Below, in pieces: positions 7 through 7,790 of a stretch of DNA of 9,794 bases (position 1 is its first letter; every line of letters begins with the position of its first letter). The position numbers and the translations under genes were made by a program. Source of the stretch: a virus (Duplodnaviria > Heunggongvirae > Uroviricota > Caudoviricetes). The notes beneath the pieces are model-generated. The model was not told the DNA's origin and ran no database searches. It worked only from the letters and a program-made list of their open reading frames with translations. The stretch lies in IMG/VR virus record IMGVR_UViG_2609459845_000003. One strand, 5' to 3'.

Positions 7-1335
7 CTATGATATGCGCTGAAATAATCCTGCCTGTCTGATACCCGGAGATGATGTCCATAGCATCGGACCACATGCACGCCACGTGCCCGGTAAACGG
101 GTCTCCCCCACATTACCGGAAGCAACCAGGGGAGTACCATCCGAAAGGCAACATGCAGACAGTGATGAGCCGGCAATGGCTGAGCCCGGTGCCATATCCC
201 CCGAATAACTCGTCGCATAATATGCCGCAAGGACAAAAGAACCGACACCAAACAGTCCGCTGTCAGGACTTCCTGACGGTCCCTGAGGTCCTGCCGGACC
301 TGCGGCTCCCGTATCTCCTTTTGGCCCCTGAGGCCCTGCCTGACCTGCGGCTCCCGTATCCCCTTTTGGCCCCTGTGGTCCTGCCGGGCCTGCAGCTCCC
401 GTATCTCCCTTTGGCCCCTGAGGTCCTGCCGGACCTGCGGCTCCCGTATCTCCTTTTGGCCCCTGAGGTCCTGCCGGGCCTGCAGCTCCCGTATCTCCCT
501 TTGGCCCCTGAGGTCCTGCCGGACCTGCGGCTCCCGTATCTCCTTTTGGCCCCTGAGGTCCTGCCGGGCCTGCAGCTCCCGTATCTCCCTTTGGCCCCTG
601 AGGTCCTGCCGGACCTGCGGCTCCCGTATCTCCTTTTGGCCCCTGAGGCCCTGCCTGACCTGCGGCTCCCGTATCCCCTTTTGGCCCCTGAGGCCCTGCC
701 GGGCCTGCGGCTCCCGTATCCCCTTTTGGCCCCTGAAGCCCTGCCGGGCCTGTATCCCCCTTGTCGCCCTTCGGTCCCAGTGGTCCGCCCGGATCGCCCT
801 GCTCACCTTTCGGACCTGTATCCCCCTTATCGCCCTTGTCACCTTTATCCCCTTTCGGCCCCGGTGGCCCTGCCGGGCCTGTATCGCCCTTGTCCCCCTT
901 CTGTCCCTGTGGACCAGTTGCTCCGGTGTCGCCTTTCAGTCCCTGTGGCCCCACGGCAGTTTCGGCTTTCTCAGCAGCTTCTCGCGCCCTGCGCACAGCC
1001 TCATCCGCCGCCGCTTCCAGCTTCTTCAGTGCATCAGGATAATACGCTGCATCCGTTTCACGGAGCAGAAAGGCATTCAGGGTGCCCGGTTCGTCGTCGG
1101 CCATGACATCAATCTCGCCGGCGCATGCCGGCTGACGACCTTCCACGCACAAGGTCACACGATAACGCCCCGGCTCAACCTGCATGCTGTAACTGCCCGT
1201 TTCGCCTGGCTGGTGCTCTGCCACCGTGGTGACTATCACCGTCTCACTCGTTCGCGTGGCTTTCAGCTCTATGGTGCAGTCCGGTACCGGTTTTCCTGTA
1301 CCATCCTTCAGCACACCTGAAATCTGTACTGACAT
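7..1335 (-). CDS. stf: Side tail fibre protein (Stf-like) with a lambda-Stf-type N-terminal domain, a ~232-residue collagen-like Gly-X-Y shaft and an 82-residue C-terminal tip
   Basis: The N-terminus [28 protein letters not shown]... resembles the lambda Stf / prophage tail-fibre N-terminal domain. Residues 129-360 are uninterrupted G-X-Y triplets ([16 protein letters not shown]...). The ATG at 1333-1335 is preceded by a G-rich Shine-Dalgarno. The tail-fibre assembly gene expected downstream would lie left of the window. Confidence 0.85.
301..750. repeat. Ten tandem direct repeats of a 45-bp unit inside stf, with degenerate copies extending across roughly 256-951
   Basis: Read directly from the sequence: unit TGCGGCTCCCGTATCTCCTTTTGGCCCCTGAGGTCCTGCCGGGCC and close variants at 301, 346, 391 ... 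706. Units 3-8 alternate between two variants, giving a 90-bp higher-order period. Each unit encodes 15 residues (five Gly-X-Y triplets) on the minus strand. Confidence 0.95.
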
Positions 1336-2108
1336 ATTCCCCCCACAAAAAAGCCCACCAGAACCGGCGGGCTGTCATAACTCTGTGTTACCTGGCTATG
1401 GTAGTTCACCGTCATCTGCTGACCACCAAACTGCTCCGCATCCACCTGCATCCCCACAATGGCCGTGTTCGGGTAGCACTGTTTCACATCGATGATTTCG
1501 GTGTATGACGACCACAGCGTTCTGTTCTGCAGCTGGTCCGTGGTGCTGTCCGCCGTCTCCCTGACCATCCGGATGTTAAAGGGGCGGGGAGGCAGATTAT
1601 CCAGAATCACCGAGGCCAGGAACTGTGAGGTGGTCTTGCCGTTAATGGTGACATCCTTTTCTGTCACCCAGTTACCGTTACGCTGTAACTGAATCAGCAG
1701 ACGGACAGAGGACGGATTACGGTCACCCTTTGACGTGGTCTCCACCAGTGACTGCACCCCGAAGGTCACCCGCAGGCGGTCAATGTTCGCTGACGTAATG
1801 GTGCGTGTTACCGGTTTTGCCCTGGTCACTTCGACACCCAGTACAGTTTCAGAGCCGGAGGACTCAAAGCCTTCCGGTGGTGTCTGCTCCTGCTCCCCGG
1901 CACGCCAGACCGCGGTCACACCGTGTATCACGGGATTACCGTCCGTGTCCGTCAGCGGGGTTTTGTTCACCAGAATACTCTGCAGGCTTTTCACCGGGCC
2001 TTCTATCGGTCCCTCACCAATCGCATCAATCACGCTCATCATCTGCGTGGATTTGAGATTGTCTTTCGCCTCACGAGGCGTGTGTGCCTTACCGCCACCT
2101 TTTCCCAT
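1308..2108 (-). pseudogene. J: Tail tip / host-specificity protein J-like, N-terminal fragment only (~237 homologous codons of an expected ~1130)
   Basis: MGKGGGKAHTPREAKDNLKSTQMMSVIDAIGEGPIEGP...TLWSSYTEIIDVKQCYPNTAIVGMQVDAEQFGGQQ matches the lambda gpJ N-terminus. Homology is lost after ...NYH (about 1398), and the frame then runs through the stf upstream intergenic region to a stop at 1308. A good Shine-Dalgarno (GGGGAAGG) precedes the ATG at 2106-2108. Confidence 0.85.
1346..1373 (-). terminator. Rho-independent terminator (minus strand) immediately upstream of stf
   Basis: On the minus strand AGCCCGCC pairs with GGTGGGCT (one G-U pair) across the loop GGTTCT, followed by TTTTTT. It lies 10-40 nt upstream of the stf start codon. 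Confidence 0.45.
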
Positions 2109-2211
2109 ACAGCCTTCCCCTGAATAAATTAACCGCCACTTGCCATTCCGTACAGAAGTCGGATATCCTTCGCCCGAAAAGCATGAAACACATTTCTGCC
2201 ATGCTAAAGAG

Positions 2212-2247
2212 AAACCCCGGTATCAGCAGATACCGGGGTTTTCTTTC
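2212..2247. terminator. Strong GC-rich hairpin with T-rich tracts on both sides, a possible bidirectional intrinsic terminator
   Basis: CCCCGGTATC (2215-2224) pairs with GATACCGGGG (2229-2238) across a 4-nt loop, extendable by AAA/TTT. It is followed by TTTTCTTTC on the plus strand and TTTCTCTTT on the minus strand. Confidence 0.5.
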
Positions 2248-2313
2248 ATGCCCACCGATAATCCTGTTGGTTAAAACCGGTAATGGCATAAAAATTCTGA
2301 ATATCTTCACATT

Positions 2314-2341
2314 TTCACAAACTGACCGTGGCGCGTATAAT
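2314..2341 (+). promoter_or_regulatory. Candidate sigma70 promoter pointing rightward, antisense to the phage late genes
   Basis: TTCACA (2314-2319), a 16-nt spacer, then a perfect TATAAT (2336-2341), with an AT-rich tract upstream (2291-2313) that could act as an UP element. Confidence 0.4.
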
Positions 2342-2347
2342 TTCTCT

Positions 2348-2446
2348 GCGTTAATTTTTTTGTCGTGATATAAGAATAATTCCTTACACTTAATCTTCGT
2401 AACTCTCCCGCAGTTCCTGTCCGCGATCACTGCGGGATTTTTTTAT
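2348..2446 (+). ncRNA. Hypothetical small non-coding transcript (~100 nt) bounded by the candidate promoter and an intrinsic terminator
   Basis: There is no ATG-initiated ORF between the predicted start site (~2348) and the terminator T-tract (2438-2444). The interval lies in a 343-bp AT-rich gap between I and J. This is structural inference only; I recognise no homolog. Confidence 0.25.
2406..2446 (+). terminator. Rho-independent terminator, plus-strand orientation
   Basis: A 9-bp stem, TCCCGCAGT (2406-2414) pairing with ACTGCGGGA (2429-2437), encloses a 14-nt loop and is followed by TTTTTTT (2438-2444). The opposite strand has no T-tract after the stem. Confidence 0.5.
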
Positions 2447-2451
2447 TCTTT

Positions 2452-3117
2452 TTACCCCTGCCGCCCGATAACCACGACCTTTCCGCCCCCGCCTTCATCA
2501 CGGGTGCTGATGTCCTGGGATATACGGCGGGAGCCAACCAGCATTTCCCCGTAAGGCACCGGCATCGGGTTCCCCTGGGCAATCATGTTATCCAGCGAGG
2601 AAAAGTACGTGTTCTGTCTGCCGTTATCCGTTGCGCGGTAATCCGGTGTTTTTGCCTTCGGGGCCAGCATCTGGGCCACACCGCCCAGTATCATGCTGGC
2701 ACCCAGTGAAAACAGCATCGTGGTGGCAGAAAAACCACCGGCACTCAGGGCTGTACCCCATAACGCCATCGAGCCTCCGGCCGTGAAGAAAGAGCCCACG
2801 ATGGCTGCCGCCCCCAACACAATCTGCAGTCCACCCTTTCCGGCCCCGGCCAGTCGCGGCACAATGTGGATGACCGTTCCCTCACCCAGCTGTTCGTGAA
2901 GGCGGGCGTACACCACCTCCGGTGCCGTGTCTTCACCGGCAATACGTATCTGGTACCAGCCTTCGTTCATCTGAAGGCGAAAGCCCGGCATCTGCATCGA
3001 CAGGGCGCGAATGGCTTCCGCTGCCGTGTTCACATACAGGCTGAGGCGGCGGCCAAATCGTTGTAAATCCCCGTGGTTGCCCACGGTTGAGCCAGAGATA
3101 ACAGCTTCCACCATCAT
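2452..3117 (-). pseudogene. I: Tail tip assembly protein I-like; the native N-terminus (~20 codons) is missing and replaced by FII-derived sequence
   Basis: From ...GDLQRFGRRLSLYVNTAAEAIRAL... through ...FSLGASMILGGVAQMLAPKAKTPDYRATDNGRQNTYFSSLDNMIAQGN...GKVVVIGR the ORF resembles lambda gpI (ubiquitin-like tail assembly protein). The first ~15 codons (MMVEAVISGSTVGNH) are FII DNA read in a different frame. Confidence 0.7.
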
Positions 3118-3403
3118 CCGGCGAAACCCGGTCTATCCAGAAGTTTTCCTCACCGATGGTCAGCGTGTCTCCACGCCGCAGTTGCCGCACATCATCAGTC
3201 CGGACAAACAGGGACGGGCTGGAGCCTTCAACGCGCACGCCCTGTCCGGCATAGCTGATATTTTCAGGGTCATCAAAAACACCACGTATTACTGCGCCGG
3301 ACTGCTCACCGGATGTCATGGTGGCTGACGTTCCCATGTACCCGCGTATCGTTTCATCGGCGCGGGCAATGGCAGCATCGAACAGGTTATCGAAATCAGC
3401 CAC
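2933..3403 (-). pseudogene. FII: Head completion / head-tail connector FII-like; the C-terminus is replaced by out-of-frame read-through into the I region
   Basis: MADFDNLFDAAIARADETIRGYMGTSAT...DRVSPDDGGSCYLWLNRG matches lambda gpFII (117 aa as recalled) to about residue 108. In place of the short native C-terminus the frame runs on for ~48 codons (QPRGFTTIWPPPQPV...) across sequence that encodes the I protein in another frame. Confidence 0.75.
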
Positions 3404-3414
3404 AGCGCCTCCCG

Positions 3415-3810
3415 TTATTGCATTCTGGCCAGGCCGCGCTCTGTCATTTCAGCTGCCACACCGGCAGAGACACGGAACGCCGTTCCCGGCAGCACAAATG
3501 CCACAGTGTCATCCCGCGTGGCGTGAAGTGCATCAGTATGCAGCGTCACCAGTGCCACGACCGTGACCAGAGCAGCCGTATCAATCACGGTATCCGGCTG
3601 CGCTGATACCACCTCATTTTCATGTCCGGTCAGCGCATTTTCCGGGCTGACAGATGTGTCCTGACCGGCAGCGTCATCCGTGTCATCAAGCTCCTCTTCC
3701 AGCTCTGCCACACGGAGCACCAGTTCTTCTTTCGTCCCCGTCAGGCTGACATCACGGTTCAGTTGCTCACCCAGCACCTGAAGACGGGCAATCAGTTCAT
3801 CTTTCGTCAT
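3415..3810 (-). CDS. FI: DNA-packaging protein FI-like, 131 aa
   Basis: MTKDELIARLQVLGEQLNRDVSLTGTKEELVLRVAELEEELDDTDD...AEMTERGLARMQ matches lambda gpFI. The start is the ATG at 3808-3810 with GGAGGAG immediately upstream on the minus strand. The ORF-track start at 3849 is an upstream in-frame extension. Confidence 0.9.
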   Translation of the reverse strand: MTKDELIARLQVLGEQLNRDVSLTGTKEELVLRVAELEEELDDTDDAAGQDTSVSPENALTGHENEVVSAQPDTVIDTAALVTVVALVTLHTDALHATRDDTVAFVLPGTAFRVSAGVAAEMTERGLARMQ

Positions 3811-6594: not shown

Positions 6595-7747
6595 TCTTCT
6601 CCTCCTCTGTTGATTGTCGCAGTCCGGATTCAAATGCCGCAGCCGCCCAGGCGGGCGGTTTAAGACCGGCTGCACGGCGCTCCATCGTTTCACGGACCTG
6701 CTGGGCAAAAATTTCCTGATAGTCGTCACCGCGTTTTGCGCACTCTTTCTCGTAGGTACTCAGTCCGGCTTCTATCAGCATCACCGCTTCCTGTACTTCT
6801 TTCAGACCATCGATGGCCATACGACCGGAGCCTATCCAGTCACAGTTCCCCCAGGCGCTGCGGGCTTCCTGAAAGCTGAAACGCGCTTTTGAAGGTAACG
6901 TCACCACGCGGCGAACGATGGCCTCTTCCAGCCAGCACAGAAACATCTGGCTCGCCTGACGGGATGCGACGAATTTTCGCCGCCCCATAAAGTACGCCCA
7001 CGACTCGTTCGCACTGGCCCGTGCCGTGGAATAGCTCATCTGGGCGTAATTCCGGGAAAGCTGCTCATACGAGACACCCAGCCCGGCAGCGATATACCGC
7101 AACAGTGACTGCTCAAACACGGAGTAGCCGTTATCCGTATCCTGAGCCGTCTGCAGGTTCAGTGAGTCACCCGGCATCAGGTGCGGCACTTTTGCGCCTC
7201 CCAGCCGAACCGGTGCTGCGGCGTAATACGCGGCAATTTCACCAATCCAGCCGGTCAGCTTGTCCCGCTGCTCCTGACTGTTCGCGCCCAGAATAAAATC
7301 CATCGCTGACTGCGTATCCAGCTCACTCTCAATGGTGGCGGCATACATCGCCTTCACAATGGCGCTCTGCAGCTGCGTGTTCTGCAGCGTGTCGAGCATC
7401 TTCATCTGCTCCATCACGCTGTAAAACACATTTGCACCGCGGGTCTGCCCGTCCTCCACGGGTTCAAAAACGTGAATGAACGAGGCGCGCCCGCCGGGTA
7501 ACTCACGGGGTATCCATGTCCATTTCTGCGGCATCCAGCCAGGATAGCCGTCCTCGCTGACGTAATATCCCAGCGCCGCACCGCTGTCATTAATCTGCAC
7601 ACCGGCACGGCAGTTCCGGCTGTCGCCGGTATTGTTCGGGTTGCTGATGCGCTTCGGGCTGACCATCCGGAACTGTGTCCGGAAAAGCCACGACGGACTG
7701 GTATCCCAGGTGGCCTGAACGAACAGTTCACCGTTAAAGGCGTGCAT
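6575..7747 (-). pseudogene. B: Portal protein (lambda gpB-like) lacking roughly the N-terminal 143 residues
   Basis: The ORF matches lambda gpB from MHAFNGELFVQATWDTS... through to the C-terminus ...ESGLRQSTEEEKSDSRAA. Upstream of that internal ATG (7745-7747) the frame holds only 8 unrelated codons back to a TTG at 7771, then the A stop codon. Only 15 bp separate A from this ORF, so there is no room for the missing portal N-terminus. Confidence 0.85.
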
Positions 7748-7790
7748 GCAGTGCCGCACGGGCAGCGGCAAGTTCTTCCTGTCGCGTCAT
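7734..7790 (-). pseudogene. W: Remnant of head-tail joining gene W: only the first ~15 codons, then out-of-frame sequence and a stop
   Basis: An ATG at 7788-7790 overlaps the A stop in the ATGA arrangement and encodes MTRQEELAAARAALH, the lambda gpW N-terminus as recalled. It then reads ARL-stop instead of continuing as DLMTGKRV..., so the rest of W is missing. Confidence 0.7.

Follow-up and report, generated by a model that had tools for sequence, protein, structure and literature searches.

A likely PasB-family small RNA gene, oriented against the late operon, between tail genes I and J of a decayed lambdoid prophage

We analyzed IMG/VR virus record IMGVR_UViG_2609459845_000003, a stretch of 9,794 nucleotides (the window), and focused on the 343-bp gap (positions 2109-2451) between tail assembly gene I and a fragment of tail gene J. 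We conclude that positions 2348-2444 of the plus strand are most likely a moron, located between I and J in a heavily decayed lambdoid prophage, that encodes a small RNA (sRNA) of the PasB family. The PasB family is known and has been detected experimentally. What is new is a divergent and very common allele. The initial annotation of this DNA had proposed an sRNA or moron directed against the late operon and convergent with the 3' end of I, and could not name a family for it. The homologous locus of enteropathogenic Escherichia coli (EPEC) is shown to be arranged in this way, and the family can now be named as PasB, which is absent from Rfam 15.

Results

PasB was described as an 83-nt RNA encoded by prophage PP6 of EPEC O127:H6 strain E2348/69 (NC_011601, 1466343-1466261, minus strand; PMC8550237, Table S6). 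It was detected by Northern blot as a band of the expected size, its stability depends on Hfq, and its gene and the late genes are on opposite strands (Pearl Mizrahi et al. 2021, PMC8550237). We found that gene I of E2348/69 ends at 1466255 and that J starts at 1466496. PasB is therefore antisense within the I-J gap, a few bases from I. The window and the E2348/69 PasB locus can be aligned from the promoter through the RNA to the terminator. The published Northern probe for PasB is AATCCCGCAGTGATCGCGGAGCT (PMC8550237); its reverse complement matches window positions 2418-2440 at 21 of 23 nt, with the two 5' bases differing.

We built a covariance model (R1) from 20 alleles, leaving out the window type (PasB of E2348/69, PasB-2, the allele of E. 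coli O157 Sakai, and 17 others). R1 matched window positions 2348-2444 on the plus strand over its full length (68.7 bits, E 9e-12), and this was the only match in the window. A permissive search of positions 1900-2700 against Rfam 15 (E up to 10) gave noise and no family match. The best of these noise matches were STnc310 (E 0.64) and Ysr202 (17.8 bits, compared to a gathering score of 315), and we attribute them to generic terminator hairpins. A full-text literature search for the RNA sequence and the probe gave no match.

The window gene and PasB share their position in the I-J gap and their antisense orientation, a promoter core and CRP-like site that are nearly the same in both, terminator hairpin arms that are identical and are followed by U7, and the motifs GCGUUA-U-run, UCCUU and UU(A/G)AUCUUC. 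In contrast, the RNA bodies are approximately 70% identical, with a longest shared word of 25 nt. The A-rich block is AUAAGAAUAAU in the window and AACAAAAACAAC in PasB, and the segment before the terminator also differs. The module next to J is 195 nt in the window and 93 nt in E2348/69, and the hairpins in the two modules are unrelated. Counts of motifs in a single window are weak evidence when taken alone. The decisive evidence is that the same elements are kept across dozens of diverged alleles.

We collected these alleles with two scans. A pattern scan of IMG/VR gave 129 instances, or 57 distinct promoter-plus-RNA sequences. We also scanned metagenomes independently of the promoter, which yielded 76 members that could be evaluated; 44 of the 120 matches were unrelated terminators, and one look-alike (L173) was rejected as the 3' end of an unrelated gene. 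The elements that are invariant, almost so, or kept as a type of motif across alleles are GCGTTA at the predicted start, the U-run after it, the A-R-N-like stretch rich in A, UCCnU, UU(A/G)AUCUU, UUAAUCUU, and the CCCGCAG/CTGCGGG stem. What varies is the spacer of the promoter, together with the -35, the sequence that separates the motifs, and the loop of the terminator. At 88% identity there are approximately 16 RNA types. The commonest are the window type, PasB/PasB-2, the Sakai type and one further type, in a sample that is biased by the search patterns. In the metagenome sample, which is likewise pattern-biased and comes mostly from human gut, the window type was the commonest.

The differences between alleles are concentrated in the body of the RNA. 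Compared to phage PPompW, identity is 100% over the 225 nt upstream of the RNA body and 94-97% in gene I, and falls to approximately 70% in the RNA body. The comparison with E2348/69 gave a similar pattern, with the RNA body as an island of divergence between its flanks. With flanks at 94-100% identity around a body at approximately 70%, these alignments make the gene look like a fixed scaffold whose middle can be exchanged. The PPompW body is PasB-2, which differs from PasB at position 27, matching a recent report (bioRxiv 10.64898/2026.05.13.724894). That survey, by Zhu, Shabalina and Storz (2026), used BLAST with a word size of 28 and >75% coverage, and described PasB variants that differ at only a few nucleotides (bioRxiv 10.64898/2026.05.13.724894). 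The window allele was probably left uncounted, because the longest word it shares with PasB is 25 nt.

A scan of species-representative genomes with protein I gave only five loci, three of them apparent contaminants, and was unusable for comparing I-J gaps across genera. Assemblies labeled Streptomyces flavalbus (L127), Parendozoicomonas haliclonae (L129) and a Clostridiales metagenome-assembled genome (L131) have short contigs that are probably contaminants and encode E. coli-phage I proteins 91-98% identical to that of the window. L127 also has a PasB-type gap.

The predicted RNA is 97 nt long if counted from the transcription start indicated by the -10 element, and approximately 84-86 nt if its 5' end corresponds to the published start of PasB after the U-run. 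Positions 2348-2361, at the predicted 5' end, contain the conserved GCGUUA and then 5-9 U, and the published 5' end of PasB is just past this run. This points to a processed 5' end or to a PasB start that was mapped imprecisely. The next segment (2362-2398, plus strand) is predicted to be single-stranded from the conservation of its segments and from the consensus fold (RNAalifold), which contained the terminator stem only. In order, it has the A-rich A-R-N-like stretch AUAAGAAUAAU, UUCCUU and UUAAUCUUC, separated by variable blocks. The UUCCUU of the window is CUCCUU in most alleles and is anti-Shine-Dalgarno-like. The gene ends in a Rho-independent terminator (2406-2444, plus strand) with a stem at 2406-2437, U7 at 2438-2444, and conserved arms. 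In its core, CCCGCAG (2407-2413) pairs with CTGCGGG (2430-2436). Its free energy is -15.7 kcal/mol (z = -4.2), in agreement with the intrinsic terminator that had been placed at about 2406-2446, and its end is 7 nt from the stop codon of gene I.

A promoter scan identified TTCACA-16-TATAAT on the plus strand (2314-2341), which matches the sigma70 consensus at 11 of 12 positions. Positions 1900-2700 contained three promoter-like sites, compared to 0.8 expected. The key bases of the -10 hexamer (TATAAT, 2336-2341, plus strand) are kept across alleles: among the 57 alleles, one is invariant and three are present in at least 90%. The -35-like TTCACA (2314-2319) and the spacer vary across the family. 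The promoter of the initial annotation thus stands as a plus-strand site with a conserved -10, and its -35 hexamer is not a conserved feature of the family.

Just upstream, an A-tract and the palindrome TCTGA-N6-TCACATTT (2288-2314, plus strand) are invariant and include a CRP-like site (2293-2314) centered at approximately -44.5. This site matches the 22-bp CRP consensus (AAATGTGA-N6-TCACATTT) at 14 of 16 specified positions, and none of 200 shuffled sequences equaled this score. TCTGA is invariant in the 57 alleles even though it was outside the search pattern, and the CRP-like site was present in 76/76 evaluable members from the promoter-independent scan. We also considered TCTGA as a sigmaE -10, since we take it to resemble those of degP and rpoH P3. 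We rejected this candidate: no GGAACTT-like -35 was found upstream in either type of J-proximal module (described below), and the RNA would be ~140 nt. CRP might control the promoter, a suggestion that we make tentatively from the sequence and rate as somewhat less than an even chance. Catabolite control would be consistent with the finding that chimeric reads containing PasB were sevenfold more numerous in overnight cultures in lysogeny broth (LB) than in exponential cultures in Dulbecco's modification of Eagle's medium (DMEM) (PMC8550237).

Genes homologous to PasB are also found in the I-J gaps of prophages Sp15, Sp14 and Sp11 of O157 Sakai, an enterohemorrhagic E. coli (EHEC) (the Sp15 copy is at 1352-1427 of locus L002). 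Crosslinking and analysis of cDNA (CRAC) with Hfq gave peaks named EcOnc22, EcOnc23 and EcOnc24 on that strand in these three prophages (Tree et al. 2014, PMC4104026, Table S2). EcOnc22 gave a Northern band of ~85 nt and was destabilized without hfq (PMC4104026). We used the sRNA AgvB to relate the published coordinates to the current genome record. The published position of AgvB is 1941783-1941835 (PMC4104026), and in the current record Rfam matches it at 1941920-1941981, which amounts to a shift of +137 to +146 bp. Applying this shift puts the EcOnc22 peak on the PasB homologue, and the peaks are inside the I-J gaps with or without the shift. EcOnc22, EcOnc23 and EcOnc24 are thus very probably the EHEC homologues of PasB. 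The Sakai loci align with the window along promoter, body and terminator, and differ from it in a body that is approximately 69% identical, a -10 of AATAAT, and the terminator loop. The PasB table of PMC8550237 names no EHEC homologue, and no cross-reference between EcOnc22-24 and PasB appears in that table or in a 2021 review (function of EcOnc22-24 given as unknown).

AgvB and AsxR are themselves prophage-encoded, short, Hfq-binding sRNAs that are oriented against late genes and have a conserved 3' part and a variable specificity region, as does the window gene. However, they are located downstream of pR', are 51-60 nt long, and act as sponges of core sRNAs, whereas none of the 37 PasB partners is an sRNA. 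We rejected the possibility that the window gene is an anti-sRNA of the AgvB/AsxR kind. Neither RF02702 nor RF02703 matched positions 1900-2700 (E up to 10), and a location in the tail region is the wrong one. In the control, AgvB in Sakai was recovered at 96.5 bits.

The I-J gap has the properties of a moron. Lambda has only 60 bp between the two genes (end of I at 15444, start of J at 15505), in line with the few tens of bp that were initially given. The 343-bp gap in the window is AT-rich, as first described, with a GC content of 0.38-0.45 over 2101-2500 compared to ~0.55-0.60 in the flanks. It has its own promoter and terminator and is inserted between genes that are adjacent in related phages. 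Phage morons likewise are autonomous units of promoter, gene and terminator, deviant in composition, that sit between two late genes that are conserved and are expressed by the prophage (Juhala et al. 2000, cited in PMC4104026). The window element differs in that its cargo is a non-coding RNA and in that it is oriented against the flanking operon. A protein-coding cargo, as a degraded moron or small-protein gene, would account for the mechanical open reading frames (ORFs) of 94, 113 and 44 amino acids that cross the gap. These ORFs had no PHROG or Pfam match, and they extend across the promoter and both hairpins. Alleles differ by indels whose lengths are not divisible by three, and conservation tracks the promoter, seed and terminator elements rather than codons. 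We therefore consider a coding origin extremely improbable, and the degraded gene that had been named as a possible refutation was not borne out.

The part of the gap next to J is a separate module of two unrelated classes. The window has the long type (2109-2285), which forms the leader of J on the late strand. The distance from the start of J to the conserved TCTTCACATTT motif (at 2304) is 195 nt in the long type and 92-93 nt in the short type, which is found at E2348/69-type loci. The J-proximal module of the window is 100% identical in PPompW phages. It contains a strong terminator-like hairpin (2212-2247) with a 13-bp stem (2212-2241) and U-rich tails on both strands. The fold of 2170-2256 gave z = -6.1 on the plus strand and -5.8 on the minus strand. 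A hairpin is found at this position in approximately 85% of the family loci, in two unrelated sequence types. In the short type (L001, 2940-2975) an A-run precedes it on the sRNA strand, so that it reads as an intrinsic terminator of the late strand, and a C:G to T:A compensatory change was found; the long module is too conserved for a covariation test. The second hairpin of the initial annotation is therefore real and strong, and across the family it is better read as a late-strand terminator than as part of the sRNA. We looked on the late strand for a promoter whose transcript would end at the 2212-2241 hairpin and found none. Our best guess is that the hairpin shields J, lom and stf from stray transcription in lysogens.

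The same module contains a weak plus-strand promoter-like site (TTGCCA-18-TATCCT, 2140-2169), followed by a small hairpin (2180-2203) and then by the 2212-2241 hairpin. From the sequence, a second RNA of ~70 nt that ends at the 2212-2241 hairpin could in principle be made in tandem with the PasB-type gene.

Published data on PasB indicate what kind of RNA it is. Ligation and sequencing of interacting RNAs (RIL-seq) gave 37 partners for PasB, of which 30 were coding sequences (CDS) or 5' untranslated regions (5'UTR) and none was an sRNA (PMC8550237, Table S5). PasB was the second RNA in ~99-100% of its chimeras, and its longest U tract is 7 (PMC8550237). It is abundant in uninduced EPEC lysogens (PMC8550237).

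These data bear on a possible role in cis, in which the RNA, or convergent transcription, would modulate processing or stability of the late transcript, or read-through into J, during lytic growth. The RNA is fully complementary to the late mRNA between I and J. The gene is always antisense within the late operon and ends 7 nt from the stop codon of I, and the late-strand terminator-like hairpin that accompanies it in ~85% of loci suggests local transcriptional insulation. However, EPEC PasB is abundant without induction, and its 30 CDS and 5'UTR partners in Hfq chimeras are encoded elsewhere. In addition, the ribosome-binding site of J is ~240 nt from the RNA, and the element is kept in prophages that are unable to make tails. 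Short, conserved, single-stranded motifs in a variable body are a better fit to seeds that act in trans than to a full-length antisense RNA. We regard a role in cis as improbable and a trans-acting RNA of the PasB family as the preferred explanation.

We found the gap in many E. coli genomes. By BLAST, the 343-bp gap was present in 1,659 of 5,426 complete genomes, and at ≥99% identity in approximately 600 genomes (~11% of the complete genomes). Strains with this allele include ATCC 25922, whose gap is 99.7% identical, and ST131 isolates. The half of the gap from promoter to terminator was also found in many Shiga toxin (Stx) phages. Among the matches listed, none had an annotated feature under the gap. 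The 343 bp are 100% intact in several prophage copies that decayed independently, a hint that prophage decay spares the sRNA segment.

The surroundings of the gene in the window raise the possibility of an inert relic, in which the motifs persist by descent and this host either does not make the RNA or offers it no targets. Three large deletions mark the prophage around it, the known expression is that of alleles from other strains, and sRNA function depends on the target repertoire (bioRxiv 10.64898/2026.05.13.724894). In contrast, the gap is fully intact in the independently decayed copies and at least 99% identical in the ~600 genomes, all family-defining elements are intact, and other alleles are highly expressed. 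An inert relic seems slightly less probable still than a role in cis, and a PasB-family gene with its elements preserved is the explanation that we favor.

The window corresponds to one whole contig (JNRH01000099.1, assembly GCA_000704585.1) in reverse complement. All of its late genes are encoded by the minus strand, and their order, with descending coordinates, is terminase A (9712-7787), portal, S49 protease, D, major capsid E, FI, FII, I (3033-2452), the gap, the N-terminal fragment of J (2108-1308), and a Stf-like tail fiber with collagen repeats (1335-7). The tail assembly protein I gene (2452-3033; Pfam PF06805, Lambda_tail_I; PHROG 32) encodes 193 amino acids as called in sister contigs L256-L261. 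Its open frame extends to 3117 (ORF 2452-3117, minus strand) due to a deletion junction upstream. The truncated J gene (1308-2108) encodes the N-terminal 266 amino acids (PF24801, FNIII-A_GpJ; PHROG 31/1727) and is fused by a deletion to the tail-fiber region, with the junction at ~1394-1398 relative to the intact prophage.

The intact prophage used as the reference for deletions is that of E. coli S1-CAM-01-A, which has an identical I-J gap and is located beside potB. Compared to it, the window has three internal deletions, each with a 3-5 nt overlap at the junction. The first (~3.4 kb, junction near 1394-1398) removed lom and most of J. The second (~7.0 kb, junction near 3073-3075) removed K through Z, and the third (586 bp, junction near 7745-7748) removed W and the 5' end of the portal gene. 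The layout of the window, at ≥80% of positions 1000-3600, was not found in any complete E. coli genome of the collection.

Two sister assemblies (L256 and L257; gap at 10802, minus strand) have lost the head genes and kept FI-FII-I, the exact 343-nt gap, the J fragment and the tail fiber. These copies are in two different chromosomal contexts. The tail-fiber ORF (7-1335, minus strand) starts with a prophage tail-fiber N-terminal domain that is followed by long collagen triple-helix repeats. Due to these repeats the ORF is self-similar at the DNA level, and the length of its product is 397-442 amino acids across the sister contigs.

Discussion

We suggest the following model for the gene. In a lysogen, and independently of the late promoter, host RNA polymerase would start ~7 nt past TATAAT, transcribe against the late operon, and halt at the terminator (hairpin and U7), 7 nt short of the end of gene I. 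The product would be an RNA of ~85-97 nt in which the terminator hairpin and U tail are the sole structured element and the rest is largely unstructured. A terminator hairpin with a U tail is the usual Hfq-binding module. The unstructured part would present the A-rich stretch, the anti-Shine-Dalgarno-like UCCUU and the conserved UUAAUCUUC. With Hfq, the RNA would pair in trans with mRNAs of the host and of its accessory genome. The conserved motifs are rich in pyrimidines and are candidates for seeds that pair with ribosome-binding regions rich in purines, and the variable blocks may tune specificity. Because the middle of the RNA differs by phage lineage while promoter and terminator are kept, alleles probably have partly different sets of targets. 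For the window allele, this analysis establishes homology to PasB, the place and direction of the gene, that its promoter and terminator are intact, and how the family is conserved; expression, the exact 5' end, the targets and control by CRP are all inferred.

Several points weigh against our interpretation. Expression, size, Hfq dependence and partners rest on data from other alleles, and the function of every PasB allele is putative. With only ~70% identity between its RNA body and that of the validated PasB, targets are not transferable to the window allele. The predicted length of 97 nt exceeds the published sizes of 83-85 nt. The base pairs of the terminator stem never vary and therefore give no covariation support for the structure, which leaves the body unjudged either way. 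The connection to EcOnc22-24 depends on an inferred coordinate shift between genome versions. Lastly, CRP sites are canonically centered at -41.5 in class II promoters and at positions such as -61.5 and -71.5 in class I promoters. With the transcription start placed 7 nt after the -10, the center of the CRP-like site (2303.5) is at approximately -44.5 and not at the canonical -41.5.

A broader proposal is that the I-J locus is a modular specificity cassette, and that the window type is a distinct, paralogue-like allele with its own regulon that selection has kept during decay. The scaffold of such a cassette would consist of the CRP-like promoter, the GCGUUA-U-run, UCCUU, UUAAUCUU and the terminator, and the blocks between them would be exchanged to give at least 16 body types. 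We offer this proposal as speculative, and unlikely in its full form.

In EPEC, and probably also in EHEC, PasB-type RNAs belong to the most abundant of the accessory sRNAs bound by Hfq. The link between PasB and EcOnc22-24 joins the EPEC and EHEC literatures. The divergent allele is present in about one in nine complete E. coli genomes, including commensal, extraintestinal pathogenic (ExPEC) and reference strains. If this allele was missed by the survey with a word size of 28, then the family would be wider, and its members more varied, than has been described. Neither Rfam nor the output of the Prokaryotic Genome Annotation Pipeline (PGAP) contains it, so that gaps of 240-343 bp are blank in thousands of genomes. 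The variable middle between flanks that are 94-100% identical provides natural seed variants with which targets can be compared.

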